Positions 12,830 through 44,276 of a DNA stretch of 64,000 bases are shown one piece after another; positions within the stretch are counted from its first letter, which is position 1, and every line of letters begins with the position of its first letter. Origin of the DNA: Nemertoderma westbladi (taxonomy: Eukaryota; Animalia; Xenacoelomorpha); contig JAUCBJ010001196.1 in assembly GCA_032718475.1 (NCBI GenBank), positions 62,001 to 126,000 of the forward strand. The letters run 5' to 3'. A program made the translations under genes and the position numbers. A model generated the notes under the pieces. That model was not told the DNA's origin and made no database searches. It was given only the letters and a program-made list of their open reading frames with translations.

Positions 12830-15686
12830 TGTTACGATATATGGCGCTGTGTACTATTATCAGCCTATTATACAGTATAGAATATTTAGATAACCCGTAA
12901 TGATGTACAGCCATAATTAGATAGGGAAAATAAAATATCCATATTCATAGATCTTATTCATTTTGTATAGTATTTAGCCCTACGTACGTAATTTTGTAAT
13001 AAAATATAAATAAATAACATTACGGTAGCAAGTTTCCTATAAAACCTTGATACAAGCTTGCTGTTTATTGGTATTAATCGAATTAATCATGTATTTGCAT
13101 TAATTTCCGTTATATTTGTCTTTGAATTGGCTTTATATTAGATTGTGCTTAATGTACTTTAAAAATCGCGAAATTAATGTTAGAGCCAGCAGCCAGGGGT
13201 GCAATTCATTACCATATATGGTAATAATTTGCGATTTGGAAACCCCGAGGTTCACAATCCGGCTTCCTTATTGGCCCAGCTGTTCCAGGTTGGTCTAATG
13301 GTGGCGTGGATTGCTGAGCCAATGAGACGATTATTTTTCGCAATTATTCTGTGTAATTCCTTATTCTGCTTCTGTAATTTCTGATTTAATTCTTTGCTGT
13401 GTTTTCTTAAATTATGCATATTATCAATGATTACTGCAAATTACAATCTTGAACTATGATTTCGACCTTTTGATTATTAGTTTCTATGCGATTTAAGATG
13501 CGATAACCCCACGGGATTTCCTTAGACTGTCAGACTGTTTGTGAATGCATGCGCCGCTATGGTAGCTATTCGTTCTAATGGAGGGCTAAGGCACCGGTAG
13601 GTGCGGCGGGCGCACCGGGGGGGGGGGGGGGGGGGTCGAAGGGAGTGTAGAGGATTCAAAACGGGCAGCGCTGGCGGGGGGTCACCATTGCGGTGGGGAG
13701 ATAGTCAGTGGGGACTGAAGACCTACCGTCGGTACAGTATTAGGGGGCTGACGATCCAGATTTTGTCTCTACTTTGTAGTGTTAGGGGGCAGGGCTTGTG
13801 GTTAGTTAGGAAGCCTATATGCAGCTGTGGAAGGCCTTCGTGTCTTACACTGCCAACTGCTAATTGCATACTATACTGGTATACTGATACGTTACTGTAT
13901 GGTTTTAGTGCACTAGATAACTGGTAGTCAACGCAGTACCGTACTACAAGCTAATTACTACGCTAATTTGTGTTGTTGCTAAAGCTTAATTGTGAATACT
14001 TAGATAGGCGCCGTTCCCTTGATTGATTTCTATTTCTTAGTTTACGCTTTAATAATTGCTGATTAGGTCAATATAATACAGTATTTAGGCTGTTGCTAGT
14101 GTAACCCAGTATGTTAAAATTAGAATTGCATATTCTGGAACATCTAGTAATTAGTACGCTATTCCGTATTTATGACTGTAATTATTTTAGCGATAAAATA
14201 AAATAAGAATTTGTACGCAGCATAGCGGAGTGTAGTTTAAGTAATTATTTAGAATACTGTAAATTATTCACACTAGGCGGTTATTTGAAAATAGCGGGGC
14301 AACAGGCTGATAGGAGCATCCAGTATACAGTAGTAAGTTGCTGGCCTAAAGCCAGCCGAAGGTAAGTTTAGACCCCAAAATAAAGTACCAGAACTGGACC
14401 CGGTAGGTAATTAGGTTATTTAAACATTCTCACATTCAACAATTCTGTTAGTGAATTCCAGTATTTGCGATAAGTGAATGCGCTGAGTGTAAGCCACCCC
14501 ATACTCGTTTTAAGTAGCTTAGGGAGCCGATTCGGGTTTATTGTTTTGGTTATTCCCACGTGGCTCATAGATTCGAACAGTTAGCTCTCTGTCGAGCGAT
14601 CGGTAGAGGAAGGAGCAAGCGATTTTGTAGGAGCCGTATAAAATTAGTAAAACATATTAGCGGACGGCCAGGTTAGCGCCATCCAGCGGTGAGAAGAAAT
14701 TTTGTGTTTAGCAGCAGTGCAGCAGTAATAACGCGCTCCTGATCATGCTTGTTTAACAGTAAGACACGTTTTTATTTTGCTGTACTACGTACAGTAAAAT
14801 GTAAAGAGTGCGTTTACTAATCGCAAAATACAGTAATTCATTTGGGCCGTTAGGGTGAACTGTAAATTAGTAAGTTTTTTGAACATTTTAGCTAGGTTTG
14901 TGAGAATTCAGTTTCGGTCAAAATTGTTTATATAATAAAATCTAGAGTTTTGTTAGAGCTTAGTTATTTTATACCATCTGGAGATATATGGCGAGACGGA
15001 GCTTCTGAGCTTGGGGTTTGTGTAGGCCTGCGGGTTCGGTTTGCAATCAGCGACGAGACTGAAACTTTGGACGCGGACGTGGAATCTCACAGCAAACAAG
15101 GTTAGTTGTTCTGTTGGTACCATTGTGTTTGTGGAAGCAGTAAAAAATTACCGGTTGTTTAACTGCGAAGCTGAACTCAATTTATTAGTTAGGATAGTTA
15201 GGTTTAGCCAGCCATGGTGTTTTGGATCGCTCAGTTGGAGAGAGAGAGGAGTGTCGCAACCTGAAGGTGTAGCCACGCGCTAGTGGACACATATAATATT
15301 TAAAAATAAAATTACGTCAATTTTGAGCTATATATAAAATTGGAAATATTTGGGTAACGAATTCATTTTTTTTGAATTTTCTGAATTAGATTCAGAAACT
15401 ATTTTTGTGTCATACTGGTATTTAAATGCTATATAATAGCTATAGAGCAATATTTTCATTTAAATATTATACCGGTAATTACTATAATTATATATACCAT
15501 TAAATTCACAATATAATATTGCGAATTTATTTTGACATTTGAGACCAAATAATTTATTTGGTATATAATTTAATCGTATTTCGATTAAATTAATATATCT
15601 CGAATTTTTTGCGAGATTTTAGCCGGAAGGCAAATTATATACTTAGACTATCAGTGTCTCAGAGAAGGAGGCACTATAGGACAGTT

Positions 15687-16096
15687 ATGAGACGGCGGCC
15701 GGACCGCCGACTGATAACAGTGACTGTTGATGACAATGCCAACTATGACGACACAGCGAGTGACGCTGACGTAAGTGAACAGGAGGACGAGACAGTGACC
15801 AGTGAGGAAGAACAAGGTGAGATAATATTATTAGGATCCCCTACCGCTACTGTAAGGAAGGATTGCACAGCAGCCCGGCCAGAGGTGAGTGATAGGGAAG
15901 GTAGTCTAGCAGGATCGAGAGCCCGGAGCCCGGTTTCCAGACCTGTGGGTATGGTAAGTGCCATGGCCCCAGTGGCTGTAAGGAGTACCCATAGTTCTCG
16001 TAATAATCCCTAAGTCCACCGAGTGTGAGTCAGGTAAGCGAGAGAGAGGTAGATATCGAGATAAAGAAGAAACTTTGTGCGCATGCCGGACATATA
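15687..16096 (+). pseudogene. gag: Family B gag, N-terminal part
   Basis: Acidic, low-complexity ORF with a frameshift. Removing the family A insertion and one ATATA restores KKKLCAHAGHI-TRTTDKVRKML. Confidence 0.7.
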
Positions 16097-17293
16097 TGTT
16101 CGCGGTATTTCAACTTTTCATAACGCAAGTTGAATATTTTTTGTATTTATTTAAAATGATTATTCCGATATCACTACTGGGTGCGGGACAGTGTGTTTTG
16201 GGCATACTCAATGAACTGGGGGCGATTTATGGGCGAATATTGGGGCGACTTACATGGTACGGGATACGGGTGGGACGGACACGCGAAAGGGTCGACCGAC
16301 TAACAGCGGAAGGGTTTGACGAGGACTGCCCTTAGCGGTCTCTGGTCAACAGCAGTTATTACGAGCCTGAAAAGGACATCGGAAAGTCTGCTGCTTGTGC
16401 CAGGGATTTGCGACGGGGACCGACGACAGACCCCTTAGCCAAGCCGTACTGGTTCTCGATGATCGTTCGCTTCGGGGTTCGTGAGGGGTGGGACAGACAC
16501 GCGACGGGGTCGAAAGACAGAGGACTGGACTCTACTGGCCTACCGACTGTTCGGAGCAGTTTCTCGGCTGCCGAAGCGACTACGAGCCTGAATAAGGACT
16601 CGGAAAGCCTAGGTGGTTGGGTCTCTGCGATGAACTGACGGACCCCTAGCCAAGCCGTACTGGTTCTTGATGATCGTTCCCTTCGGGGTTCGTGACGGGT
16701 GGGACGGACACGCGAACGGGTCCACCAACACGACAGACTCCTAGCCAAGCCGTACTGGTTCTCGATGACTGATCCCTTCGAGGTTCGAGAGGGGTGGTAC
16801 AGATACGCGACAGAGTCTACCGACTGGACCGACCCTTAGCCAAGCCGTACTGGTTCTCGATGATCGATCCCTTCGGGGTTCGGGAGGGGTGGTACGGATA
16901 CGCAACAGGGTCGACCGACACCGACACTACGGCACCAAGACTAGGACCGAGGGAAAATCTGGGGAACATTAGTTAGGCTAAAATCTGAGCGAACAGTGGG
17001 TAATTAAATAATTTACTGTAGGGATTTATATTGTCGTGTATTATTATTGTGAATAATTTGGTGTATATTGGTTTGGGGAAGCCCAATTTATTCTCAATCA
17101 AGATTCAACTGTAGGGAAGTTACATTAAAGGTATATCCAACCAATGCAGCTTTTTCTCAACCGCAATCTTGCATCTAAGAACTTATTCCTTCTCCACAAT
17201 CAATATCCGGTGACTGGCCGGGATTCCGTGGTCTGTAAAGTTCCGCCTCCAGCATCGGCGTTTTCCCCCATGGTGTCGGGAATAACGGCAACA
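16097..17293 (+). repeat. Family A 5' LTR (about 300 bp shorter than the 3' LTR)
   Basis: Colinear with 25670-27165 except that it lacks ~25839-26138. Confidence 0.95.
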
Positions 17294-17539
17294 AAATTGA
17301 GAATAAAACGGTCAATTTTGACAGGGTGTCAAAATTGAGAATAAAACGCGGCCAACTTCAACTGGTGGAATTTGGGAATCCTGCAATACTCTTCAAACTC
17401 TCTCGGTGCTTACCCAGCACCAACTACGAGGAAACTCTGGTATTTGAGTTAAGACAAAGCCGTGGTTTAATCAATCAACAAACTCGATATAACAAACTCG
17501 TAGTCGGTAGATCACATATAAGAGAGTCATTAACAGGGA

Positions 17540-17731
17540 ATGGAAGTATCGATCACACCCATTGAAATAATTCAAGTTGAGCCAGGAATCTGGCACGTCG
17601 AGGTTGAAGTACAAGGAACGAACGTCGGACGATTCAGGATTACCGTTCGAGTAATCCAAGCCGAGTATGAGAGCTACGAAGAACTATTCTACGACATCGC
17701 ATATCTCGCTATCAACGAGGCACTAGAATGA
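17540..17731 (+). CDS. 63-aa ORF upstream of gag, function unknown
   Basis: Homologue at 51064-51255 (-) with 53/63 identical residues and many synonymous changes. Its stop overlaps the gag ATG (ATGA). Confidence 0.7.
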   Translation: MEVSITPIEIIQVEPGIWHVEVEVQGTNVGRFRITVRVIQAEYESYEELFYDIAYLAINEALE

Positions 17732-19195
17732 CAACGAACAACGTCTCCGAAACCGACGAGATGGACACCCACACAGACTCGGAAGCCGACGAGGTACCGA
17801 ATGTCAAGAACATGACCCGTCGACTAGGCGCTCTCAAAGGCGGAGTCACTCGAGCGTATCAACGTATAGAGAAACAACTCAAGAGAGTCGAAACTCCCCT
17901 CAACGAGATACAAACTCAGCTTCAGAATATCCGAAGTATGTTACAACGATATGAGAGGATGATACAGACGTATCAAGAACTCGTTCCCTCCACCGGCCAT
18001 GCCCAAGATGGAGATCCGCACCTTCGAAGGAGATCCCGTCGATTACCTCAGATTCAAGAAACGGTTTTTCGCGCAGATTGGATCAACGGACATAGCCGAC
18101 GTACAAAAGTTAGTATATTTATCCCAATACCTGGGCGACAAACCACGCCGGATTATCGCATGCTTCGAGGGAGGAGCTCATGAGGCATACTATGACGCAT
18201 GTAAAACTCTAGATAAAATATACAGAAATATCGGGACTATAATTAATAAAACTCTCGAGAAACTGATACAGGACGCGGGATCCCTAAGGGACCCACAGAA
18301 TATCCCAGAATTCTCAGATTCGATGAAGGATGCCTACTACACTCTAAAACCATTAAATAAGGAGGAACAAGTAAACAACATTCTAAACCTCCGACAGATC
18401 GCCCGGAAGTTCCCCGGATGGCTACAAAGTAAGTGGGCATATAAATGCGTAGATCTCCGGCGCAGACACCCAGATCGAGATCCCAGCTTCCTCGAAATGT
18501 CGGCATTCCTGGACGATGTCTCCGAAGCCATGAATGACTCGATGTTCTCGAAACAGAGTCTCGCCAAGTTAGACGGAATAGAAAGCAACTCCAGGAGTAA
18601 GACGCCCACTCAGAAACCGAGATTCCGTCCCCCTCCGGTGAGTACGATGGCCATCACCATGGCCGAGGATTCCGATGACGAAGACTACGAGGAACCGACA
18701 TCAGCCGAGGAATGGGCGTGTTACCTTGCGAATTGGGCACCCGAGAGGGAAGGCATCACAAACTCCCTTCTCTGTCTCTTCTGTGGAGAGAAACATAAAG
18801 TGGAATTCTGCAGGAAGTTCCAGTTTGCCGAACTCGTCCCATGCTTCGAGGCGATAATGAAACACCGAGGATGCTTCCGGTGTCTTGGAACAGGTCACTA
18901 TGTTCGGGATTGCGACCAAAGATCGTGCTGTGCGGGCTGTAACGACCTACGTCATCACACGCTCCTCCACATCCCCGCGAACTTTGACTTCACCATCCTC
19001 CCCTTTCGGATTGAAGCCAAGCGAAGAGGAGAAACGAACCACGTTTCTAAAGGAACCCGGACAACCCAACGGAGAGAAACCAACCCATTTAAAACCTCCA
19101 CCGATGCATCACAAGTAACAAATATCTCAGCCACGATCAACCTTATAAATCGCCGTTACATGGTCTTCGCCAAAGTAATCCCAGTAAGAATTTAA
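17728..19195 (+). pseudogene. gag: Family A gag (BEL-type, triple zinc knuckle), with a deletion/frameshift near 17995
   Basis: LKGGVTR N-terminus; PKMEIRTFEGDP..Y..F (DUF1759-like); CLFCGEKH..EFC, CFRCLGTGH..RDC, CAGC...HHTLLH. Confidence 0.9.
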
Positions 19196-20045
19196 GGGGT
19201 TGGTAAGTCCTTGACGACGCTCGCGTTCCTTGATAACGGGTCGGACGGAACCATCTTCGACCGGGATTTCCTCGAGCAACTCGGCCTAGAATATGAACCT
19301 TGCAAACGGCCCATACAAACTATCACCGACCACAGAGAGGTAGAATCCGGGGAGGTGCAGCTCCAGATGGGAGGAGTAATGAAGGGCTACGAGATGGTTA
19401 AGCTGACCATCAAGAACGCCTTGGTACACACAGACCTCCGAGTGCGGTTCCGACAATCAGCCGAATACGCCCCCCTCATACAATTGGACCGAGACGATGT
19501 AGACCTAAGGTGCCCGCCGTTGGATGTAAACCGCATCACCCTACTGATCGGACTTGATACACCGGAATTACACATACCCACCGGAGACGTCGCCCGATCT
19601 GTAAATCCAGATGACGGCTTTTACGCTGAACGAACGATTATGGGTTGGACACTTTGTGGCATCAAAGAGGAGACTACAGACACCTATACATATCTTCCTA
19701 AGTGCCAGATTAAAGAGAAGGCAACCTCCGTGGGTTACTGTTCGGTGACTGACCTCCATTCACCATCACAGCGTCACACCACATTTGTAGCGAACCGAGC
19801 CGGAGATAAAACAGTGTACCGGCCGAGAACAGTGGCACCACGTGAACGGGAAAGAAAATCCAGCAGACTTATCAAGCTGAGGCGCCAACCCAAAACAACT
19901 CGGTAAAAGTAAACTCTGGCTTACAGGCCCGGAATTCCTACAGCAACCACAATTAACATGGAGTACCCGATTCGATCCCGAACTCGATAGCAGAAAATAC
20001 TCCGAGGACGACAAAGAGATCCGTAAAGTCCATAGAAGCAACGCA
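19196..20045 (+). pseudogene. Family A aspartic protease fused directly to the RNase H C-terminus
   Basis: AFLDNGSDGT active site and LLIGLD, MGWTLCG motifs, followed at ~19760 by TFVANR, WHHVNGKENPADLSS and LWLTGPEFL. No YxDD region in between. Confidence 0.85.
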
Positions 20046-21694
20046 GTGGAAATTTATAGTTGTCTGACCGAGCCTGCAAAGGACTCGGGCAGGCACTATA
20101 ACGTCGCGACGATCACTCAACCAGCGGCGTCTTTATACCTGTTGATCGAGCGAACTTCATCAATGAAACGTCTCATCCACCACGTTATAACCCTCCGCAA
20201 CTTCCTACGGTGGAAAGATAACAAGCCGATAGTTCAACGGAGTATACAAGAACTCATTATCGTGGAGAAGTGTATCGTTGGATATGTCCAGAGAGAAAGC
20301 TTCCCCGATGAGTGGGAACAACTCAGTGCGGGCAAGACCATGAAACTGGACAGCCCAGTCTACCAACTGAGACCAATGATGGGAGAGGACGGACTGATCC
20401 GACTGAATACCCGGATGGCAAATGCCCCGGTTGAATATGAGGTTAAATACCCAGCGCTTCTGCACGGGACGTCGACACTAGCCAAGCTATTAATTCAACA
20501 GTGTCACGAGGAAAACCACCATGCAGGACAGAACTGGATTATAGCTAATATACGACAAAGGTATTGGATCACCCGCATCCAGCCCCTGATCCGGAAAGTT
20601 TTAAAACGTTGCTTTCCCTGCAGAAGATATCTAGCGCCACCACTCATACAAAAGATGGCCGACTTACCAGCCACCCGCCTAAACTCCGATTCCCCACCAT
20701 TCTATGTAACCGGAGTAGACTGTTTCGGACCGTTTGCAGTCATCGAGCGACGATCCAACATCAAATGCTGGGGAGCCATCTTTACCTGCCTTAGGTCTAG
20801 GGCAATCTACCTAGATATCGTGGTGAACCTTACGCAACACGCATTCATCAACGCCCTGCGTCGGTTCGTGGCGAACAATGGGACATGTCGTCATATGTAC
20901 TCCGATACGGTACAAACTTTGTGGGGGGAGAAAGAGAACTTAGAGAGGCGATCGAGGTAGGGTTTACAGAGGACACCGCATCCCAAGTCTGGAGGGACCA
21001 CCACATACAGTGGCACTTCCAAACACCCTTAGCACCCCATACGAGCGGGGTATGGGAGAAGCTGATCGACTTAGTAAAACGATCCATGCGCGTCGCATTA
21101 GGAGACACCCGGGTAACCCATGACACCCTCCGCACAACATTCTGCGAGATCACGGTTACCCTGAACAACCGGCCCATTGTCCCTATCCGCGACGACCCCA
21201 CAGACCTGGAGCCCCTCACTCCTAACCACCTACTGGGAAGACCCAAAACCCATATTCTCCCAGAGACGATGTTTCCGGATCCCGGCGATATCGCGAGACA
21301 TACTAACTGGAAGAAGGCCCAAGCGTTGGCAGCACATTGGTGGAGAATCTGGGCCCAGGAGTACCTCATAACCCTCCGGACCAGGAGGAAGTGGAACAAC
21401 ACCTACAGGAATGTCGCAGTTGGTGACATGGTGCTGGTGAAAGAAGACCTCAAAGACCGCGTCCACTGGCCTGTGGCGCGAGTTGTGGCAATACAACCGA
21501 GCAAAGACGGACTTGCGAGGACTGTGACGATACGAACGGCAAAGGGCCACTTCCAACGCCCTATCCAGAGGCTGTGCCTTCTTGAAGGCAATGACAGCGG
21601 TGACTCCAAGAGAGGTGATAAGTTCCCTACTCAGGATCCTGCTGCAGACATTGGTGACAATGCTAAACCCGTTAAACCCTTTTCATCCTGTTGA
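20046..21694 (+). pseudogene. Family A DDE integrase (one frameshift near 20905)
   Basis: H..HAG...CFPC zinc finger; GVDCFGPF, YSD-GTNFVG, GVWEKLI, LTPNHLL, WPVARV. Confidence 0.93.
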
Positions 21695-21970
21695 CAAACT
21701 CTTTAAACTGTGATTTACTGACAATGAAAAAATGAACCCCCCTTAAACCAACTGTAACCACGCAATGGTATTTGTGTTTCCTCGTGTGTTATGTGGAGTC
21801 CAGCGTCACCCTGCAGATGTTTCGACTGACGCAGGGTCGTTTATGTATTGTTCACCCTGATTTTGGTCATTGGGACCAACGAAATTGGATTATTGGAAAT
21901 GGTAAAGATTTGAAGTGGAATTCATTGTATCCATTGTAGTATGTTATGTTGTCCGTTGCGTGCGCAGTTC

Positions 21971-22351
21971 GGGGCGTAGGCGGTGTAACTAGTCCAGCTG
22001 TAGATCCCGGATTGCCGCGCAACACCCCCTCTATCCCATTATTCTGGTGGGTCCATGGTGCATCTACATGACTTCGACGATAGAGGGTTTTATGTTTCTC
22101 AGTCGCGTTATTCTGGTGGGACCGTTGCGTGGATTTTGGGGCGTAGGCGGTGTAACTAGTCCAGCTGTAGATCCCAGAATGTTGCGTAACCCCATCCCAC
22201 ATGACTTCGTCGGCTGAGCTTTATGTTGCTGGGAGTGTTGTTCTGGTGGGTCCCTGGTGCATTCCACGTGACTTCACTTCCAGTGTCTTCATTGTCCGTT
22301 ACGTGTGCAGTTTGGGGCGTAGGCGGTGTAACTAGCCCAGCTGTAGATCCC
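21971..22351 (+). repeat. Three copies of a 38-nt core at ~170-bp spacing between integrase and the extra ORF
   Basis: GGGGCGTAGGCGGTGTAACTAGYCCAGCTGTAGATCCC at 21971, 22138 and 22314. Confidence 0.9.
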
Positions 22352-22920
22352 AGATTGCCGCGTAACACCCCTTCCACGACGAAAATTTCCCAAAGAAGAT
22401 GATTGAATGTAGTTGGAAATGATGAAAAGAAACAGACGACATTACTATAAACCGAATGATGACGCGTATGATGATGAAAATGTAATGATGCGCACCCTGG
22501 TGCTGTGCTTATAACAAATGATGATAGCCGGGGGGCTACAACCCCAATGATGATGTGGAAATAAATGTGATGAAATGTGCAACTAAATGATGAAATGTGT
22601 TGAAATAAATGAAATGTGAAATGAAATAATAATGAGAAATGAAAAAAGACAAAAAAAAGGTATAAAAATGTCTAAAGAAAAGAATTGGAAAAAAAGAAGA
22701 GGAAAAAAAAAAGTCATAAACTGGTTGGATATTAATGTATAGTTATAGTAACTGTAAATGCTGAATGTATTAGCAATAAGATGATAGATGCCTATATAGC
22801 AATGTTATTTAATAAACTGAATTAAAAAAATAAAACTGAATTATTCTGCAATCACTATAGTTTCAGACTTTCTGGATTTATAATTAACTAATATAATTTT
22901 GCAACGGACATAATTTAAAT

Positions 22921-25553
22921 ATGGACCCAAATCGCCAAATTATCGGCGAATTACGTAATACAATAGATCTATTGGAATATCCACAACCTGGATCCCCTAA
23001 TTGTGATACAAATTGGAACGCCCTGATAAATGAGAATGTGCGAGTTGTCAAATTCTCCGGGTGAGAGGGACCGGATTCCCGGAATCTACGAGCCCTCCGG
23101 TTGGCCGATGCTAGTACGAGACTGAAAAGAACTCGGAACGCAAAGGCTACCGGAGGGGATGAGTTGTCATATTGGGAAACTTTTCGGCAAAGCGTCTACA
23201 GATCCCGATGTTTGATATACGACAACGAGGGAAACGCGACGCCCACCTCGAAAGCGATGACGTTGGCGCGATGTCAAAGTTTCGTCGATGACAACAGTAC
23301 GTACCTCGCCCACTGGCGAAACCTAGCGGAGTGTACGGCAATGCTACGAGAGGAACGTATATCCGTTATCCAGAATCGCGACGACTACCAGGAGAAGTAC
23401 GGGGCGAAAGAATACGGTCGATCCTTGGTCGTCGTCCTCGGAACCCTGGATGGTTTGGTATTGGTGTGTCGAATATTCCCGACACCCAGACAGGAAGTGC
23501 AAGCAGCCGGAGCGATCTGGTTGCTACCTCCGGAAATCCAAAAGATCCTCTTCGACTTCGACGTCATTAAAATCGGGTCGGATATAAAAGCGGACGTCCG
23601 GAACGACTACGCGAACGCTCCTTTAGGAAGAGACCATAAAGGAGATCTCAATGCCATTAGTCATTGCATCGACACCCAGACACTCCTAGCCTGGTTACGA
23701 TCCGCCGAATTCATGCGAGGATTCCGCGAGGTGAGACGGACGAAATCCGGGATCAGCTACCTCGCTGTACTAAACGGCGGCATCGACTTTAAACCTCAGA
23801 AATTCCAGGACTATAATAAGATATATGGTAGATACCCGGGATTGGAAATAAAGAGCGAGTGAGAGGGTCGATGGAAGGACGTTGACAGGAGGTGGACGAT
23901 ACACCAAAGGTGGGAAAATCCCGATCGACGGAACTACATCTACGTCGTTATGGAGTCCTACACCGTTGCTAAGTTTATATGTAAAACTCTCGATAACCTC
24001 ATTACGGCGGTTCCTCTTTCCTTTGTCGACTACGACTGGAACGAGGTTATAAACCACGCGTTCAAAGCGGTCGAGAACATTACACCGGGAGAGACGAAAA
24101 CACTCACCGTTATCGATTCCTGGGACGAGAATGGACCTAACGACATCGCCACGATTACCGATCTTCTCTGTGCAGAGGAGCCTCTGATTTCTTCAGAAGC
24201 TACATGAGGGCATTCTACTGTCTACCCCAAAGCGACCACTCGAGCCGGAAGCTGCATACGAACCGGCCGCCAAACGGGTTGCCTCGGCCGAACCTGCGAT
24301 GGAAGCAGGCGCCTCTACCCCACTCGGCTCCGGTAGCCCTGCGAGGGAGTTAGTCACTACCTCCGCGTTGAGCGACTTCGGCGATATATGCCAAAGGTTA
24401 TCCCCATATCCTTTCCCGGGCGGCGAAGACTGGTCATCAGAGATTCCGAGTACCAGCCTCAGCGATACTGGTCGAGAAGGGTCCCAGCGCTGCGCCGACT
24501 CCCGAAGATCTCCTCGGAATCCCTCCGTCGAAAACCCCGGCACCTCTTCGCCGACCAGCGGTGGCTACTACCCCCTCCGTTCCACAGGATCCTATGCGAC
24601 TAACCCGATGGTACGCCGAGCAGACCGAATGGATCCACCGCCAGAAACGGTCGTCTGAGATGAGACCGGCAGGACATAAAGAAGGTTATCGGAGCGAGAA
24701 CCTACTATGCCAAAGCCCAGCCTTTCGCGGGCTACCAGCCACCGCGAATATTCAAAAGAGCGACCGACGACTCGAGTATTACGTCGGCGTCCCGATTCTG
24801 ATATTCCCCGGTCGAGAGATGCAGTTGGAGATATGCGCAAACTGCGGTTCGGAGCAGTGCCCATGTGGTAGACGAAATCGGGTTACTGATTCGTGCCTAC
24901 AGCTCCTCGGGATACTGTATTGCCCATACTGCGCAACATCGGGACATGATGTCTCGGTTTGTCCAATCCTTTATAACCTCTGCACAACTTGCGGTTTCCG
25001 TGGACATTCCGCTAGCCCCGCTGCTATATAAAATGTCCTACAAAAGACGTTACCGCTATGGGAAATATGGTCATGTTCGAAACATACGCAAACAGCCATA
25101 TAAGGACCAAAATGCGGAGAAAAGCTCAGAATATCGCACAGGAAATGGCATGCGGGTACTTTTCCTTCCCGACACCTCCACACGACAGCGACGTTACCTT
25201 TTCACTACGTGGATCTGTTGCTGAGCGCCGGATTATTCGGCCCATTCGAAGTCCTTAGACGCTTATATTCGTATAAGGAGGAGTTTGGTGACGGAAAGTG
25301 GTTCCTAGAGGCGCGCAACACCGAGTTGGAAAGACGTACCGATATGATCCCGTTGCCATCGAAAGGAAGAGCCGCCAGGAGACAAGCCGAAACGTTGCTC
25401 ACGATGGATGTCGATGCTCCCCTACCAGCTCTAGCGATCGATGAGAGTCGACGGGCGAAGAGGAGGAAGGCCTTATCAGAGAAAGAAATAGAGGACCAGG
25501 ATATTCCAGGAACATTTATATTGGACATTTATTCTTTATATATATATATATGA
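22921..25553 (+). pseudogene. Family A extra ORF: DEDDy 3'-5' exonuclease-like domain plus CCHC zinc knuckles (stops and frameshifts)
   Basis: ATG 22921 is in frame with ORFs 23101 and 23950 through two TGA codons. Motifs LIYDNEG, LPPEIQKILFDFDVIKIGSDIKAD, CIDTQ, SGISYLA and YIYVVMES; CPYCATSGHDVSVC at 24921 and CTTCGFRGH at 24981. Confidence 0.65.
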
Positions 25554-25669
25554 ACTCTAGGCCAAATTAATCAAGACTATGCAATATTACAATTTTGGGT
25601 TTTTTATATGGGAATGACCTATGCAAACTCAATCTACCGATAGACCTCACGAAGGTCATTGGGGGGGAC

Positions 25670-27165
25670 TGTTCGTGGTATTTCAACTTTTCATAAAAGC
25701 GAGTTGAATATTTTTTGTATTTATTTAAAATGATTATTCCGATATCACTACTGGGTGCGGGACAGTGTGTTTTGGGCACACTCAATGAACTGGGGGCGAT
25801 TTATGGGCGAATATTGGGGCGACTTACAGGGTACGGGATTCATTTCATGTATATAAGGGCCAGGGGGGGAAGGAAAAGTTAAGCAGTATTCAGGTTTACC
25901 TGACTACTATTAGGCCTAGCCAACTTCCTGCTGCCTGTAGAGGTGGATTTGGTAACTCGCTAGGTCTAAAGGACAAGGACTGCCCTTAGCAGTCCCTGGC
26001 CAACAGCAGTTATTACGAGCCTGAAAAGGACATCGGAAAGTCTGCTGCTTGTGTCAGGGATTTGCGACGGGAAACGACGACAGACCCCGTAGCCAAGCCA
26101 TACTGGTTCTCGATGATCGTTCCCTTCGGGGTTCGTGAGGGGTGGGACGGACACGCGAAAGGGTCGACCGACTAACAGAGGAAGGGTTTGACGAGGACTG
26201 CCCTTAGCAGTCTCTGGTCAACAGCAGTTATTACGAGCCTGAAAAGGACATCGGAAAGTCTGCTGCTTGTGCCAGGGATTTGCGACAGGGACCGACGACA
26301 GACCCCTTAGCCAAGCCGTACTGGTTCTCGATGATCGTTCCCTTCGGGGTTCGTGAGGGGTGGGACGGACACGCGACGGGGTCGAAAGACAGAGGACTGG
26401 ACTCTACTGGCCTACCGACTGTTCGGAGCAGTTTCTCGGCTGCCGAAGCGACTACGAGCCTGAATAAGGACTCGGAAAGCCTAGGTGGTTGGGTCTCTGC
26501 GATGAACCGACAGACCCCTAGCCAAGCCGTACTGGTTCTCGATGATTGTTCCCTTCGGGGTTCGTGAGGGGTGGGACGGACACACGAACGGGTCCACCGA
26601 CACGACAGACTCCTAGCCAAGCCGTACTGGTTCTCGATGACTGATCCCTTCGGGGTTCGAGAGGGGTGGTACGGATACGCGACAGAGTCTACCGACTGGA
26701 CCGACCCTTAGCCAAGCCGTACTGATTCTCGATGATCGATCCCTTCGGGGTTCGGGAGGGGTGGTACGGATACGCAACAGGGTTGACCGACACCGACACT
26801 ATGGCACCAAGACTAGGACCGAGGGAAAATCTGGGGAACATTAGTTAGGCTAAAATCTGAGCGAACAGTGGGTAATTAAATAATTTACTGTAGGGATTTA
26901 TATTGTCGTGTATTATTATTGTGAATAATTTGGTGTATATTGGTTTGGGGAATCCCAATTTATTCTCAATCAAGATTCAACTGTAGGGAAGTTACATTAA
27001 AGGTATATCCAACCAATGCAGCTTTTTCTCAACCGCAATCTTGCATCTAAGAACTTATTCCTTCTCCACAATCAATATCCGGTGACTGGCCGGGATTCCG
27101 TGGTCTGTAAAGTTCCGCCTCCAGCATCGGCGTTTTCCCCCATGGTGTCGGGAATAACGGCAACA
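25670..27165 (+). repeat. Family A 3' LTR with internal ~90-240-bp subrepeats
   Basis: Follows the PPT; repeated TAGCCAAGCCGTACTGGTTCTCGATGA...CCCTTCGGGGTTCG units. Confidence 0.95.
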
Positions 27166-27170
27166 ATATA

Positions 27171-29900
27171 ACCCGGACGACGGACAAGGTAAGAAAGATG
27201 CTAGCCGACTCCGGTAACATCGGCAGGGAAGGGTTAGTAGAACTTATAAAGGGATATAACTCAGCGTGATTTAGCGAGATGGGGGAGCTTGCAGTCCTAG
27301 CGAAGAGAGCAGTGGAGTCTCAGTTGAGCGACGTAGCGACGAAGATTTACGACAGGGCTTTAGCGGCCTTGTTGGAGCACTGCGCGGTATCGGAGCGATT
27401 CCGACGAGTTAGGACAGAAAACTGGTTTCTATAGGCGCCGCGAGCGCAGGCGACTCAGGTAAGTGACGTGGAGTTAAGGAACTTCGTGGAGCAGGAAGAG
27501 ACCCAAGACAAGGAAGATCGACGATACCAGAGGGAAGTCACCAGCTGGCTGATGCAGAGCGGAGTAGTAGTACCGGGTCAGGTGTTACCGACAACGGAGA
27601 ACATCCAACAGAGGACGTTAACTCCACCCGACGACGCATCCAGAAACAGTGGGGATTCTCAGGTTAGTCATGCGCGAGGGAAGGTTATATGTGCTAGATC
27701 CCTAGTTTCTCACAACTCGGCAGAGGAGAGAAGACGACAATTAGACGAACAATTAGACGCAAAGCTGCGCAAGTTGGAGGACATAAGTAAGTGTGAGCAA
27801 GCCGAACGCGAACAGGAAGAACGCGAACTCCAACTTGAGTGCGAACGCGAACAGAAGGAACTCTAACTCGAGCGCAAACGCGAACAGAAGGAACGCGAAT
27901 GGAAGGAACGCGAGCGCCAACTAGAATGCGAACGGGAAGCCAAGGAATGCGAACAAAGGAGATGCGAATTTCAACTCGAACGCAAGCGCAAGGAGCGCGA
28001 ACTTGAGTGCGAGAAAGAGCGACGTGCATTGTATGAAGAAAAGGCGCGACTGGAAGAAGAGAGCGCAGCGAGTCTCACGAGGGAAGAATAACAACGCAAA
28101 CTGGCGCAATTGGAAAGTGCGAGATTAGACTTAGAAAGCGAAGAATGAACTAGGAAGGCAAATGAAATTGACGAGAAGGGGATGCGAATGATCGAAGAAT
28201 GTGGGGCGAGTGTAGGTACCGAGTTGCGAGAACTGTTCGCACAGCAGAAGGCCGAACAGGAGGCGAGAACTCCAGTTATACGTGAGTCGACGGCGACCAG
28301 AATTCCTATACCCAGTCCAACTATTACGAGTACTCGGATCGCTAAACCATTTTCTACATATCGCACACCAGTTGGCATTAGTGCTTCACCCATCGCGCAG
28401 GATCCGCACCATCAGGACGGCGCACAGCGACGCAACTATTATCGAGACGAAGAGGAGTTTATAGAAGAAATTCCTAGAGGCCGAGTATTGGGCGAACCGA
28501 AACCGCAGATTTGGAATATGCGGATGGATCGCATTCCCAGTTCGACGGAGAACTTCCGGGTTAAACCGGAAGAAGGATCATATGAGAGACAGCGGATTAC
28601 CCAAATAGAGCCGACAATTCAGCAGAACCCTAGCCAGGAGTTTATTACGAGGGAGGAGTTAGGTACCAGTTTAGTGCAAGCTATATTGCCGCACATCCAA
28701 CCTATAACGGACATGCTTAGTATCCTACAGTTAAAGGAAGCAGCACATGTAAGAAGTAATTCTAATCCTAGCAGGCCTGAACTAGATAGAGTCCAACCTG
28801 GCCAACAAGTACGCATATCGGAGGCAACAATACCACAAAGACCTCAAGTAAGAATGCCCGTCCCTACGATCCACAATCCCGACATCGAACACTCGGCGGA
28901 GAGATTTATACAGGAGGCCTGGGTCAGGGCCTCGGCGCATAAACCAACGCGAGCGCTGAGAACCGACACAGACTCGAGCGATGAAGAGGAAGAATCGTCC
29001 CAAAACTGGAAGGAAAGAAGGACCGACGCGGAGCAGGTAAGTATGAATCCCCTGACTTAACAACCCTGCAGAACTAAACAATTTGTTAACCCGGAATGAC
29101 GCAACCCTTAGAGATATAGGTAAGTTTGCTGCTAGTTCAACTATCTGCTACAGATGCTCCATCGAGAACCTAGAGCCATTGCTGACAACTTCATCGGCAA
29201 TGAAAGAGCATTTGAACTAGCTATGAAGACCCTTAGCGACATCTACGGGAATAAAACCAAGATGGCACAGTCGATAGTGGAAGACTTGGGTAAAGGCGGA
29301 AGGATTATAACTCCATAACTCTATAACTCTATAACTATAACACTATTTCGAACGCATTAGACATCTTGAGGACGGTGAATCTACCTCATCATGGTGATCA
29401 CGCCGAAGTTTTAAAGAGCATAATAAGAGGTTTAAACATGCATTACCGACAGAAATGGCGCAAATTAGAGAATAAGTTAGAGGGTCAAGGTAAGATGTTG
29501 AACCCCTGTGACTTTTAACTCAGTAGACAGATATAATTCGAGTACCCCTGCCATTAGATCAGACTCGCGAGTATGGTCATGTGAGCGGTCAGATAGACCT
29601 AAGGTAAAGCAACAGGAGTTGCCGGATGGATTTGTAGGTGGTTGCCAATTCTGCTTACTAAAGGAGGTAAGATCTGACGACCATAAGTTAGACAGTTGCA
29701 GACGGTTTAAAGACTAAACTTCGGAACAGAGAAGGGTTCAAGTGCGGACGTTGGACACCTGTTGGGCATGTCTTGCGCCCGGTCATATACGGCGGCAGTG
29801 CCCGAACAGCAAGGACGGATGCATGGAATGTGGCAGACTACATCACAAGTTGCTACATGCGGATTTCCATACCCCAATGGACCGTTACTTACAGAGAAAT
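27171..29900 (+). pseudogene. gag: Family B gag, remainder (coiled-coil EREQKE repeats, zinc knuckles)
   Basis: CQFC...HKLDSC, CWACLAPGHIRRQC, CMECGRLHHKLLH; many stops. Confidence 0.8.
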
Positions 29901-30046
29901 CCTCAAAGGAAGGGGAGCAGAGATCCCGTAACGATAAGAAGAAATACATACACCGGCATCCAAGACGATGGATATCAACCAGGTTCGTCGGACGAGGACG
30001 GTGAGGCGAGCGCGAGAGAGGTGACCTGCCAGGGGTTCACCGTGGA

Positions 30047-33000
30047 TTGGATAGTTCATCGACCAGCGCGCGGATGTATTTATCATCGGTCACGTCAGAG
30101 ATATTCAGCATGATTCCGGTGAAACTTACTGGAGATAAGGGGTCGAAAAGAATATATGTGATGTTGGACATTGCATCCACATTATCATATATAGACGAGG
30201 AAGTGGCGAGAGCCATTTCCAGCTTCCGGGATGCCGAGGAAATAAAGATAGAGTTAAAATCCATGCACGGGGTAGGTGACCTTAGGGGACATAAGATTTC
30301 GGTAGAACTAGACTCCCTACTCCCGAGAGACGAGCACACTCGACAAGAGCGGAGAGCTTTGCCATTGGATGGATTCAAGTGTCTAGCTATGAAGGGGTTC
30401 GGCAGGCAGTTATGTAAGGTGCCACCGATGAGTCCCATAGCACAGGAGTATTTTGACAAGCTCAGAATACCGAGACACCAGGTGGGTTATAGGAATGCGT
30501 CTATGTTGATTGGAGCAGAACAGCTGATCGCGCACCAAATATGGGAAACGAGACCAGCTGAGCCATATGTAAATGGGCCACACACCCATAGGATTATATT
30601 AGGTTGGTATACACGAGTACTCATATGTTATGAGTTTTCAGGCGGCGATAAGCCAAAGGATAGACACGACAAATTACAGCCTATAACTCAACAACCGTTA
30701 GTAGAACCACCAGACATAGACGAGTTTAGGAGAACCTGTATTGACCACTATAGCGACTTTAGCGAGTCAGACGAGGAGTTGATTCCCGATAATGTTAGAT
30801 TGTAGGAACCACTCTAAAACGACCAGACAGATAGTGAACCCGAGGACTACTGTTATCAGACCCGTGGGTCTGGTTCAGTGGCCCACGCCACTTATTTGAG
30901 TAACATTTTGACTTATACCAATATAGTGGAGGGTCAGGTGGCGAAATATCGAGACCTCGACATTTTCCAATGGAGAACAACTACAACTTGGCCCTGAAAC
31001 GATTGAACGGAGTAAGGGCTCGGCTGTTAAAGAATCAAGATGTTAGGGAGAACTATTTCGCCAAGGGATTTGCTGGGAAGGTAGAGAACCCCGACTTAGT
31101 GATGGACCAGACTTATTACCTCCCACAACACTATGTGACTCACCCCGACAAACCAGACAAGGTCCGAGTAGTCAATGACTGCGCAGCAGTCTATAGAGGT
31201 ATGTCCCTGAATTCAGAGTTGATGGATGGTCCCAACCTAAATAACTACTTTATAGGGATACTGTTACGCTTTAGACAGCGGCGATTTGCGTTTACTTGCG
31301 ACATCGAGGCGATGTTTCACCAGGTAAGAGCCTGCAAGGCGGACCAGGATAGTCTCAGATTTCTCTGGTACGAGAATGAAGACCTATCCGGCCCAGTGGT
31401 CACATACCAGATGTATGTCAGGATATTTGGCGCCTGCGATAGTCCCAATGGTACGTTGTTCGTTTTAAAGAAAACGGCGACAGCCCAAATTGGTAAGTAT
31501 CCAGTAGATGTTATCGAGTCCATCCTGAGAAACTTCTACATGGACGACGGATTGGTGTCCAAAGACACAGCGGAACAAGCCATAGAAGTGGCTCACGGCC
31601 TACAGGAGTGCTTGGCTATAGGAGGTTTTCCACTAACCAGGTTCACCACCAATTCGGAGGCCTTATTAGAATCGTTCCCGGTGAAGGATCACGGGAGCGG
31701 AGACATTGAATTGGGTGTAGAACCCATCCCCATGGCGTGAGTATTGGGACTCGCTTGGAACCCAAACACGGATAAGTTCCAGGTGAGAGTTAGGTTTGAA
31801 CCCAGTAGCCCAGACAAAATTTTTGACCTGATGAACTTTATCAGTCCAGTAATATTACAGGCACGAATATGTATGAGGAAAATCTGGCTGTCCGACCTAG
31901 AGTGGGACGAGCCAATATCCCCTATACATGCAAAGAAGTGGAGAGAGTGGGAAGCCGATTTACATCTATTGAAAAATATAGATGTACCCCGCTCCTACTT
32001 TCCGAATCAGCTGGTATTTCCAGCTGATCTTGAACTGCACTTATTCAGTGATGCAAGTGACACCGGCTTTGGTATGGTAGCCTACCTTCGCCGAGAGGTA
32101 AGTCAGAATAAGTTTGAGAAGGCCTTTGTGACCTCTAGATCAAAGACAATGCCGGTCAAATACATGACAGTCCCTTGTGCAGAGTTGCAGGCGGCAGTAG
32201 TCTCGGTTGAAGTAAGTAAGCAGATAATAGAGGAGTTGGACACGACATTGACATTATTTTATTGGACGGACGCATCCTTAGTGTTAGTGTATGTTGCAGC
32301 TGACAATATTGCACTAAAGACATTTGTGGCCAACAGACGCGCTCATATCGTCGACTTTTCGACGAAGGAACAATGGAGACATTGTCCGGGAGTGTTAAAC
32401 CCGGCTGACATAACTTCGAGAGGTGCTATGCCGGCGGAATTCTGTCAGGAGGAATCCCAGGTGTTTTGGTTACATGGGCCTGATTTTCTAACGAGGACAC
32501 AGGATCATTGGCCAGAGCGACTGAAGATAGTGACCAATCCGATGCCGAAGGATGCAGAGGTCAAAGTGGAGAAAGTTTCCAAGTCTAAGTCTAAAGCCAA
32601 ACTCGAGTCATTGGAGCAGTCTGAAGAGTCATTGGAGTGGCTTGAAGAGTCATTGGAGTGGCCCGGAGACCTGTCAGACCAAGAGACTTACGTGACTACA
32701 AGGTCCGGAAGGGTAAGTTATGACATAAAACCACCCTTACAGACTACACAAGGGTCATAATTAGTAAGTGACGGACAGAAAATGACCGACAAGATGGAGC
32801 CTTCGGTTTCTAAACCTGCGGGTTTGGATTCGAAACTTCCATTAGCTAGTGGACAACCATCGCTGGCATTAGAGCCATGTAGTATTTATGACAAATTACT
32901 AAATTCATCCGCCTCTTGGCTGACAATTTGTAAAAGAACTGTCTGGTTAAGCCGATACATTTCGTACCTTTGTTTAAAACATTAGAAACACTTAGGAAAA

Positions 33001-34594
33001 CAAACGAGCACTAATAGTGAGCGAATTCAGAAATTGAAACAACCTCTGACAGAGGATGAGATTGATCAAGCGGAATTAAAGCATTTGAGACATTATCAAA
33101 TGTGTGCCTTATGTATGTGTGTATGTATGCGTGTGTGTGTATGTGTGTATGTATGTATAAATGTGTGTCTGTTATTGGCTCAACGACTAGTTCTCTATAA
33201 AGCCCTCAAAAAATGGAGTCCATTAATCCATAAGGGTTTGATTTGTCATAGATCGAGAATCCAGACTGTCGACATAAACTCACAGGTTAGGTTCCCAGTG
33301 ATAATCCCTAGTCATCCAATAGAATTGCAAAGAGCAATTCAATGGGATATACATAAGAGGCTGCATCACGCGGGAAGGTTACACTGTTTGTCGGCAGTGA
33401 GACAGCGATTCATTCTATTGCAGCCAAGCAGGGCAGTAGGTACCATGTACGATGCCTGTCTGGTTTGCAAGAGGCTGAACTCCCGGAAGCGAGAGTGCAG
33501 GCATATGACCCACCCTTTACAAATACAGCGGTGGACTGCTTTGGTACAATTGAGGCAAAGAGTGGATGGCTGACCCACAAGAGATGGGGCCTGCTACTGA
33601 TATGTATGGCCAGTAGAGCCGTACATATAGAGCGTGTGGCAGACATGTCGACCAAACCTGGCCTTAAAGAGATTTATGAGAGGACTAGTAAAGGCGTTCT
33701 ACTCTGACAAGGGGACTAACTTTGTTGGAGGGAATAGCGAGTTGAATGCGGCTCATAGGGCGGCGCCAGACAGAGAAATCTCCGCAGCACTTTTGCCACA
33801 AAGAGTGGAGTGGAAATTTAACACTCCAGAAAGTCCCTGGAGAGGAGGAAGTTGGGAGCGTTTAGTTCGCTCCATAAAACAGGCCATTGCTAAAATATTG
33901 CCTGTAAACAAACAACTTACAGACGACGAGCTGGTAACAGCTTTTATCGAAATCGAGCATACTTTAAACTCGAGGCCGATAGCTATGTTGCCTGACGGTG
34001 TCGCATTAACACCAAATCATTTGCTAATGCAGAGTCCAGCATTTCTTGTGCCGGCATCAGAACCCATTAGTGCCGACCTATATAGTCGAAAGAGCTGGAA
34101 AATAACACAGTTTTTGGCGTACACATTCTGGGAATATTGGCGGGAATATTATCTCCCACAATATCCACCAGATCTAAGTGGTACAAAACATTTCGGAGCC
34201 TCCACAGAGGAGACTACATATTAATAACTGAACCAGTTGTCAAGAGAAAATATTGGGAGACTGGAGTCATCTTGCACATACACCCTTACGTACATAATAT
34301 AGTACGCACCGTTACTGTAAAAATAAGGTGCAAGTGTCCAAACCAAAAGAAGTGTAAAACTAATGGTTTACACACCTTGGACAGGCTGGAGTCATCTTGC
34401 ACATACACCCTTACGTACAAAATATAGTACGCACCGTTACTGTAAAAATAAGGTGCAAGTGTCCAAACCAAAAGAAGTGTAAAACTAATGGTTTACACAC
34501 CTTGGACAGGCTGGTCCAAGATATCATGTTACTAGAGGAGACACGCATCGAGACAGGAGACTATAATTTGTCTTCTGCCTCAAACCAAAATTAG
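30047..34594 (+). pseudogene. pol: Family B pol: protease, RT, RNase H, integrase (decayed)
   Basis: VMLDIAST; YYLPQH, RVVNDCA, CDIEAMFHQV, FYMDDG; LHLFSDAS, WTDAS, NPADITSRG; VDCFG, SDKGTNF, GGSWERL. A (TG)n-like tract lies at ~33100-33170. Confidence 0.93.
34261..34510 (+). repeat. 125-bp tandem duplication in the family B integrase tail
   Basis: 34261-34385 is repeated at 34386-34510, bounded by CTGG microhomology. Confidence 0.9.
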
Positions 34595-34595
34595 T

Positions 34596-36859
34596 TATTA
34601 TTATTATAATCTTTAATTCAGAAAAATAAATTCCATAGTAAAATAGTTAGAGCACAATAATGACCAATGTAAACATAACACTAAATTATACAAATTACCA
34701 AAATGATTAGACAAATTAACGTAATTAGCTACATAGAAATTCGGTATTACGCATTGCGCAAATTCTAGAACCCTTGGCAATGGTGCAAATGGCACGCAGA
34801 ACGTAGTTATCTAGTTTGGTTATGCGGCAAAAAAGGCCAGCGACCGCCCTATAACGAATATGAATAAAAAGAGGGACATTTAAGGACCCTAAAGCTAATC
34901 GAATGCTAGTAGTTTCATCATCAACAACTCTGGGTATATTGAAAAACCGTCTAGCACAATTATTATAAGCTACTTTGAGTTTGTTGTGAACAGACTCAGA
35001 AAAGTTTTGTCTGGCCCAAAGAGCATTACAATATAACGGTGTACAATATGCACGAAATAAAGTAACTTTAACGGGGACAGGGCATGAACCGAATTTGCGA
35101 ATCAAAAAATTACCCCTAGAATAAAGCTTACAAGTTTGATTCCTGATATCGTAGTCGTCATCTAAAGTACTGTGTACAATATGGCCAAGATAATTAAACT
35201 TCTCAACGACTTCAATAGGAGAGCCATTAAGATAAACACTAGGGCGACAAATAATTGTCGACCCCTTAGGATACAAATATAAACACTCACTTTTCTTTTT
35301 ATTGAAAGTTATAGAATTACCTTTTGCGTAAGTAACACATATATCTATTAAGTGCTGTAAACCAAAAATAGAGTTTGAAATTAAACATAAGTCATCAGCG
35401 TAACCAAGGTGATTAATCCTGGTTCCATCAATAACGCAACCTACATCAGCACTGGACAATTGCTTGCTTAAATCATCGATATAAATGTTGTAGAGCAAAG
35501 GCGACAAAATACCACCTTGCTTAGGTACATTGTGTCAAGTACAATGCACACATCTCCAACCAGACACTATATAACATTGGAGGTGTCTCATTGGTTCCCC
35601 CAAGCTTGACACTAGAACAAAATCGCCTCCGCTTTGCAGGACATTGCTTTCGCCGTGAGGACCAGCCAGTGCATAATCTTGTACTTTGGCAGCCTCATGG
35701 AGTGAATAAGCATGGTGGACAGCCTATGACTTTCTTGAGACGCATCTTAAAGGACACTGGCCTTAAAGATGCGGATGATCTAGCAAATGTCATGGGTGAT
35801 AGGGAGTTGTGGCGGTGCAATTTTGTTGACAAGCCGGCACAGCATTCTTAAAAATGCAGCTGCAATGCAGCATGCCGATCCTAGTAGTAGTAGTACCTTG
35901 CTTAGTACCATTGGTAACAGTAAACTTAGCAGATGTAAAACCACCCCAGATTACATGCATCGACTGAGCTCGATACCAATATAAAATAATGCGGACTACA
36001 TATAATGGAAAACCCCGCGATATCAGTTTACTAAATAACTTAAAATGATTTATTTTGTCGAATGCTTTACTGGCATCTAACATACATACGTAAATGGGCG
36101 TATTGTTAGAAATATAGTAATTAAGTATCTCCTTAAGTGTAAAGATACATAATTCCGTACCTAATTTTGTCTTAAATCCAAACTGATTATCAGTCGTATA
36201 CATCAAAGACAAGCACCGTGCCAAAATAATATTTTCCAGTAATTTACTAAGAACAGTAGCTATCGAAATACCCCTATAATTATCTTTGCTTGTATGGTCC
36301 CCGGTTTTATCCTTTATTAAAGGAATAATAACGGATTCCATCATAAGCTGGGGAATATAACCATGGCTGAAAATTAAGTTAAAAAATAGAGTTAAAATAT
36401 TCAACAGTGGTACACAGCACCCATGGATAAAATGCTCAGCTTCAAGGCCATCAGGGCCTATTGCCTTACCGCTACACAAACTATTAATAGCTTCAAATAT
36501 TTCATTAACTACTACATTATTTGTTTTACTAAAAGTAGTTCCCAATAACTTATTAGTTACAAATTCCTATAGATACTGAATACTGATACTGAATTAAATA
36601 AAATCACAAAAATGATCTTTCCACAGCCCACAAATCTGTTCGGGACCAACTGCGTCGCCTACTTTATTCGGTAGTACAGTTGTTTCCGAGCAACATTTGT
36701 GTACATCAGACCAAAAGTTCTTTATTGGGTTACCTTTATTTGAAGTACTGCCCAATAAAGACTCAGCTAATTTAGTATCACGTATGTTCTGTTCATCACG
36801 CTTACATGCCCTGAGCGCTCGTTTAAAATTGGCTTTCGACCGCAGATAATTATCTGCGG
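34596..36859 (-). mobile_element. 5'-truncated LINE (RTE-X-like RT) with a (TAA)n tail
   Basis: ORFs 35790-36545 and 34725-35507: GPDG, NYRGIS, QFGF, DASKAFD, KQG-GILSP, GYADD. TSD AAATTAGT at 34588-34595 and 36860-36867. Clade call is by eye. Confidence 0.88.
35525..35894 (+). mobile_element. 3' fragment of an RTE-like LINE inserted into the RT of the other LINE
   Basis: 11-bp TSD ACCTTGCTTAG (35514-35524, 35895-35905); (TAG)n tail; close match to 62418-62795. Confidence 0.93.
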
Positions 36860-44200: not shown

Positions 44201-44276
44201 GACAGTCATTCCACAAACCCCGGCCACATCTCGCTCGGGACGAAACCTCCGTCAGCCAGACCGATTTGCCCCGTAA
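41200..44276 (+). CDS. pol: Gypsy pol (PR-RT-RNase H-IN) in the -1 frame to gag; one disabling frameshift near 41730
   Basis: YLVDCGA, SPWAS, WRPCGDFRRLN, MPFGL, YLDD, VDAS, RELLA, TDHKPL, HVDIVGPLP, SDRGSQF, NGMVER, PYSGPF. Confidence 0.95.

Follow-up and report, generated by a model that had tools for sequence, protein, structure and literature searches.

A very probable DEDDy-type nuclease domain with zinc knuckles in the third reading frame of a decayed BEL/Pao retrotransposon from Nemertoderma westbladi

The window analysed here, a stretch of 64,000 nucleotides of Nemertoderma westbladi DNA, contains an 11.1-kb LTR element on the forward strand, and this element hosts the reading frame under study, designated ORF3. 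A 5-bp target-site duplication lies on either side of the element, at 16092-16096 and, with five identical bases behind the 3' LTR, at 27166-27170. Both LTRs have TG...CA ends; the 5' LTR (16097-17293) is about 300 bp shorter than the 3' LTR (25670-27165), and over 1196 aligned bases they disagree at 24. Each LTR is long and made up of internal repeats with units of about 95 and 218 bp (16097-16930 and 25670-26800). The polypurine tract (PPT), read from the sequence, is located at 25661-25668. The coding region starts with gag (17671-19195, in two frames; Pfam DUF1759, E 2e-10; zf-CCHC, E 0.0011), followed by the aspartic protease region (19196-19800; Asp_protease_2, E 0.00085) and by the end of the RNase H region with the integrase (19881-21694, with one frameshift; Integrase_H2C2, E 9.4e-10; DUF5641, E 5.4e-29). 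The domain order is of the PR-(RT-RH)-IN type with gag and pol domains of the BEL type by Pfam, and BEL/Pao is marked by this combination of a DUF1759 gag with its CCHC knuckle, a protease, and an integrase with zinc finger and DUF5641. The reverse transcriptase is absent from this copy, as no Y.DD motif was found in the three forward frames of 17671-21700. The protease region abuts the RNase H end near 19800, with the RT and most of RNase H gone, and at this site contigs of one sequencing run (X3) have loose ends at 19801. The spacer between pol and ORF3 contains three repeats spaced by about 170 bp (21949-22374; repeat search, family D7), which are GC-rich and are followed by an A-rich tract. 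The whole element is nested within the gag region of another BEL/Pao-like element (15594-16091 and 27171-34224). Elsewhere in the window lie a near-intact gypsy element (40158-44471), BEL fragments, a LINE fragment (34725-36566) and a Penelope-like fragment (56489-57764), all of these labels, including that of the nesting element, being taken from translations.

The primer-binding position (17296-17307) pairs with the LTR of the element itself, in which the segment 17087-17098, a candidate self-primer, is complementary to it in 12 of 12 pairs. The helix was seen in both the MFE and the centroid folds, with an overall fold z of only -1.66. In a 74%-identical relative on the minus strand of the window (51681 / 51471), the pairing is retained via a two-sided change. 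This pairing is a Tf1-like self-priming signature in BEL/Pao.

ORF3 (22921-25553, about 877 codons, broken) occupies the space between the integrase end at 21694 and the PPT. The initial annotation had described a decayed ORF of about 2.6 kb here, and this was confirmed: the first frame runs from an ATG at 22921 to 24205 with in-frame stops at 23062 and 23860, and the frame changes near 24200, 24650, 25020 and 25180-25220, giving about four frameshifts. Part of these breaks could be due to sequencing errors. The six motifs quoted in that annotation are all correctly placed, in the single frame that begins with the ATG, namely LIYDNEG (23212-23232), LPPEIQKILFDFDVIKIGSDIKAD (23524-23595), CIDTQ (23665-23679), SGISYLA (23746-23766), W..P (23911-23922) and YIYVVMES (23935-23958). 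A low-complexity linker rich in S, P, G, T and A follows at 24188-24800; it is broken at both ends, and these five residues make up 51% of 24188-24655. The zinc-knuckle cluster (24834-25030) is present as had been claimed, but only one of its CX2CX4HX4C knuckles is canonical and whole (24921-24962), the first being degenerate and the third cut by a break. The last part is a broken C-terminal segment (25016-25290), homologous to the protein P0002 described below, the alignment with P0002 residues 501-630 reaching 25286. Upstream of the ATG, a candidate branch point and splice acceptor lie at 22836-22866. The AG ends at 22866 and the sequence is free of ATG from there to 22921, and these features, read from the sequence only, may serve a subgenomic ORF3 message.

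A signal peptide or a membrane anchor was not evident in ORF3 by a hydropathy scan and by inspection of the N-terminus by eye. The peak of hydropathy is one 19-residue stretch (Kyte-Doolittle 2.08), which sits inside the nuclease core and contains D and R, and the maximum in P0002 is 1.24. The earlier statement that ORF3 is not env therefore holds, and an env gene was rejected for want of an evident anchor or signal peptide. An inserted host gene was also rejected, since ORF3 lies within the element bounded by the target-site duplications and is covered continuously by many divergent contigs of the aligned sequencing runs.

A phmmer search with the window ORF3 against 1.84 billion representative proteins gave one match, P0002, a protein of 648 amino acids (E 6.2e-6). 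It comes from a single ENA record, a contig of 9449 bp, and is known here from the protein alone; unlike the window ORF3, it is intact. The nuclease cores of the two proteins are 28% identical over 138 amino acids (BLASTP, E 5e-16), and tblastn with P0002 498-548 detected the knuckle region with 38% identity over 61 positions (E 3.2e-7). In P0002 two knuckles are canonical and a third CxxC is present, and a polar linker stands where the window ORF3 has its S/P/G/T/A-rich one. Because P0002 matches in the nuclease core and again from the knuckle region into the C-terminal segment, the whole ORF3 architecture is common to both, in the order of nuclease-like domain, polar linker, knuckles and C-terminal segment. 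A word-indexed protein search with the window ORF3 found no homolog among 2819 candidates, and the same search with P0002, or with the pair at longer lengths, recovered only P0002 itself. Scans for related loci in viral, metagenome and prokaryote contigs found no ORF3 relative. A degenerate Exo II pattern matched one viral and 12 metagenome sequences, and all 13 were rejected as none was related to ORF3 by tblastn; nine of the 12 metagenome matches are presumably N-termini of glutamate 5-kinase. In plasmids and phages, tblastn gave one match each (E 8 and E 2), nothing usable.

The domain assignment was examined with profile and fold comparisons. The window protein, with stops as X, showed no match to PF01612 or to any other relevant Pfam family, nothing relevant in NCBIfam, and nothing below E 0.1 in PDB sequence searches. 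A Pfam comparison had been suggested in the initial annotation; in it P0002 reaches PF01612 with a domain E of 0.036 and a whole-protein E of 0.2, both under the curated cut-off, and the window protein gives no match. Our own profile was based on 63 bacterial PF01612 proteins, with a motif filter that removed three of the 28 loci of one set (A) and with 80 enterobacterial rnd loci left out. Residues 1-290 of P0002 scored 11.6 bits against this profile, whereas none of 324 window ORFs and none of 1000 shuffles went above 3.3, a value reached in both groups; the score of the window protein was within its shuffles. When the alignment of the window protein and P0002 was compared with PF01612 sets by hhalign, probabilities of 77% (bacterial set) and 81% were obtained with scores of 39 and 41, while 60 column shuffles reached at most 20, the reversed alignment 13, and the window protein alone 21, inside its shuffle range (maximum 23). 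These HMM and hhalign matches are confined to the middle of the domain. Among ESM Atlas hits, PF01612 stood on 25 of 30 for the window protein (0.93) and on 25 of 30 for P0002 (0.94), for which the three best clusters were unnamed; a value of 0.9 was reached by shuffled proteins in 4 to 10 of 100 trials. P0002 fits a set of RNase D proteins (8.8 bits) better than a set of stand-alone WRN-like proteins (3.1 bits). Two AlphaFold models, made from shallow alignments, had a mean pLDDT of 31 (window protein, single-sequence) and 35, and Foldseek with the latter returned no match. No HRDC domain was found in P0002 or in the window protein by Pfam at E up to 5, and an Rrp6-HRDC type was rejected as no HRDC follows the nuclease. 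The DEDDy/DnaQ domain with knuckles that had been proposed for the env slot is thus supported through P0002 and the pair, but not by the window protein alone, which scores no better than its shuffles. As judged from these sequence comparisons, we hold with high confidence that the domain takes the DnaQ fold, and ORF3 very probably consists of a DEDDy-type domain with zinc knuckles inside a BEL/Pao element.

In a MAFFT alignment, D101, E103, D225, Y341 and E345 of the window protein occupy the D/E/D/Y/D columns of PF01612, and D62, E64, D130, Y229 and E233 of P0002 occupy the identical columns. The invariance of the Exo I and Exo III columns is partly due to the motif filter on the profile proteins, whereas at Exo II both D225 and P0002 D130 align to a column invariant in 63 of 63 proteins that was not chosen by the filter. 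The probable Exo I (23212-23232, D101 and E103) aligns with the DxE column of the 63 proteins. It is followed by a segment of about 63 residues (23233-23421), about 55 longer than its P0002 counterpart, so that Exo I lies that much further from the next strand than in P0002, where the DxE is clear. The 21-mer around Exo I of P0002 fits the window best at LIYDNEG (15 versus 5 at the next place), and the score of this register was equalled by 1668 of 20000 shuffles (p 0.083). We treat LIYDNEG as the probable Exo I, the weakest of the motif assignments. The nuclease core (23422-23829), with the Exo II D225 (23593-23595) and the DTQ motif, is the part matched by P0002 and by hhalign at 77%. Exo III (23911-23958) contains Y341 and E345, the latter replacing D, and its distance from the W..P in front of it is one residue shorter than in P0002. 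That YxxxE replaces YxxxD at this site had been noted before and proved correct for both proteins, whose acidic pattern is DEDE and not DEDD. Because P0002 has the same E, the glutamate at Exo III is a family trait rather than a sign of decay; a literature search for data on a D-to-E change at Exo III found no paper.

Another long reading frame of the window (37633-39120, forward strand) has about 495 codons with two stops and closes with W...S...MFYDNEGG. This end was the best non-self match to the 22-mer around the ORF3 Exo I among 127,870 offsets (35 versus 27 for the next; pairwise E 0.041). The frame runs into the leader of another element at 39121. It had no Pfam or viral match, and is possibly a truncated, distant ORF3 relative with a long N-terminal extension.

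Parts of the stretch are present in three sequencing runs from two studies of one organism. Contigs of four runs were aligned to it, with a summed depth that does not equal copy number, and they cover 30 of 30 bins of 17200-27200, including ORF3; no contig of the four runs reaches from pol to ORF3. In the nuclease region (23150-23980), with 750, 385, 546 and 8 contigs per run, variants were counted at a 30% share. Among 40 of the 81 variant rows, 25 differences fell on third positions (binomial p 1.5e-4 against one third), and 23 were silent, 15 replacement and 2 ambiguous, where 29% silent would be expected; the remaining 41 rows could alter this silent excess or hit catalytic codons. Within the same 40 rows, 7 of 11 differences in the segment after Exo I (23259 to 23394) were third-position, and none of the 40 lay in the four acidic codons, so the acidic residues, whose conservation among copies had been singled out by the initial annotation, are unchanged there. 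The contrast mainly sets this copy against most of its family, and it therefore shows past constraint on the frame, not present activity. The ORF3 frame was likely under purifying selection in its family and is now broken in this copy. The ORF3 motifs go beyond chance, since a natural protein has them in order and the frame bears the mark of purifying selection. In three of the four runs a contig joint connects 23141 with 26057, which suggests that some copies are without most of ORF3, or that an insertion junction lies there.

Concerning function, the reading that we put forward, with somewhat less than an even chance of being right in full, is that ORF3 was selected as a DEDDy 3'-5' exonuclease held on knuckles, trimming RNA and acting against silencing. 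ORF3 would be made from a spliced subgenomic message, for which the AG at 22866 may be the acceptor. The zinc knuckles would grip single-stranded RNA, tethered to the nuclease domain, and the DEDDy-type domain would trim the held RNA from its 3' end. The target might be the small RNAs, guide or antisense, by which the element is silenced and which ORF3 would destroy, and this is the weakest step. On balance we expect intact copies to be catalytically active despite the E at Exo III. The substrate would be RNA rather than DNA, as suggested by the knuckles and the RNase D-like DTQ motif. Counter-silencing is preferred because unrelated LTR lineages with differing priming modes appear to have gained such nucleases.

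It is also conceivable, if doubtful, that the domain is a pseudo-nuclease, in which the DEDDy fold binds RNA 3' ends without cutting them and, like EXD1 or Maelstrom, acts as an adaptor that helps to package, export or shield the RNA of the element. The replacement of D by E at Exo III of the window ORF3 and of P0002, the long insertion after Exo I and the extreme divergence are all compatible with such a loss of catalysis, and EXD1 and Maelstrom are described as inactive DEDD derivatives that still bind RNA (PMC5408684, in its available text). However, the four acidic positions and the tyrosine stay acidic or Tyr in two proteins with only 28% identity in the core, and in a dead site these residues should have been replaced more readily.

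An active nuclease that matures the RNA of the element itself, for instance by cutting back the 3' end of the self-primer or that of the packaged genomic RNA, seems unlikely to us. It would suit the 12-nt primer-binding position that pairs with the element's own LTR, a pairing kept in the related element, and the resemblance of the ORF3 knuckles to nucleocapsid modules. The self-primer of Tf1, however, is made by RNase H alone. Self-primer trimming had been offered in the initial annotation, and no result came out in its favour, though the element carries the self-priming signature; processing of the 3' ends of element RNAs is suggested in the available text of PMC5408684.

We think it very unlikely that the DEDDy resemblance is misleading and that ORF3 has another fold, as an orphan protein with zinc knuckles. 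The lack of a match above the curated cut-off, the low pLDDT values and the Atlas scores of shuffled proteins would agree with this, but Pfam, our own HMM, hhalign and the Atlas all indicate PF01612, and the motifs are in order and in register. Least probable of all is proofreading for the reverse transcriptase, in which ORF3 would remove mismatched DNA 3' ends: A-family polymerases use the same fold as a proofreading domain, and Exo II has a KxG form similar to that of WRN and Klenow (Fig. S1 of PMC3706591), but ORF3 is separate from pol, the bit scores of P0002 favour the RNase D set over the WRN-like one, and the knuckles point to RNA.

In a wider and more tentative picture, a self-priming BEL/Pao lineage would encode an active 'DEDEy' exoribonuclease with RNA-binding knuckles, of a retroelement-specific nuclease family common to distant hosts, that serves either counter-silencing or as a tRNA-independent primer maturase; we regard this as possible, with the odds against it. 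If the target is small RNA, ORF3 would be an enzyme by which an animal transposon suppresses silencing.

The extra ORFs known from BEL/Pao elements are for the most part envelope genes. Env-bearing BEL/Pao elements, with the F-like protein of roo or the chuvirus-type glycoprotein of mosquito elements (PMC13524379), resemble the present element in having an extra ORF in the same slot; their products are membrane fusogens, whereas ORF3 has no evident signal peptide or anchor. No BEL/Pao element with a DEDDy ORF was found in the literature searched, whose scope left out Repbase notes, most subscription papers, figures and preprint supplements; the available texts of PMC6431247, PMC6338049, PMC13524379, PMC3985635 and PMC10309623 contained no BEL/Pao case. 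CERV of Cer1 was rejected as a precedent, its domains being helical, ring-forming and G-protein-like in the available text of PMC10309623.

In ORF3 the three Exo motifs follow one another in the order, and at the distances, seen in the cellular PF01612 proteins WRN-exo, EXD2, Mut-7/Nibbler, RNase D and Rrp6. The KxG before the Exo II aspartate is WRN-like and the DTQ behind it is RNase D/Rrp6-like. Unlike these proteins, ORF3 has E at Exo III, the insertion after Exo I, C-terminal knuckles and no HRDC match. A DEDDy domain also occurs within the Dada DNA transposases (PMC3706591). Fig. S1 of that paper gives the same motif wording for WRN, Mut-7, Rrp6, RNase D and Dada, and the spacing of the Exo motifs of the window ORF3 fits it. 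Dada has a very similar wording (LP..I..LL.D..I.KVG..IK.DL and W..L..DQ..Y...D), but its domain is inserted in a DDE transposase, has a complete DEDD and presumably works on the ends of DNA.

The closest layout is that of bdelloid rotifers, in which DEDDy ORF3s with a DEED pattern, typically expressed via spliced messages, are reported in Juno1/2, Vesta2/5 and Athena/Terminon elements (PMC5408684). The initial annotation had named rotifers and nematodes as precedents; the rotifers were found, while for nematodes no precedent was found in the literature searched, and the main text of that paper has 0 occurrences of 'nematod'. As in Juno and Vesta, ORF3 is a non-env frame between pol and the 3' LTR with an RNase D-like DEDDy domain, one acidic D-to-E swap, no transmembrane domain and an activity that is putative in both cases. 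In contrast, the host here is BEL/Pao, the pattern is DEDE instead of DEED, a long linker and a CCHC cluster are present where, for Vesta2/5, only a Cys-His-Cys motif is mentioned in the available text, and a silent excess is seen where the rotifer ORF3s, within the genome, did not clearly depart from neutrality. In its layout, compared by description and not by sequence, ORF3 corresponds to the rotifer DEDDy ORF3s. A selected cargo of nuclease and knuckles would mean that DEDDy capture, so far described for rotifer gypsy-type and Penelope-like elements, had reached BEL/Pao, another retrotransposon superfamily. The intact P0002 makes testable the question raised by the rotifer paper, whether ORFs of this type have activity, and towards which substrate.
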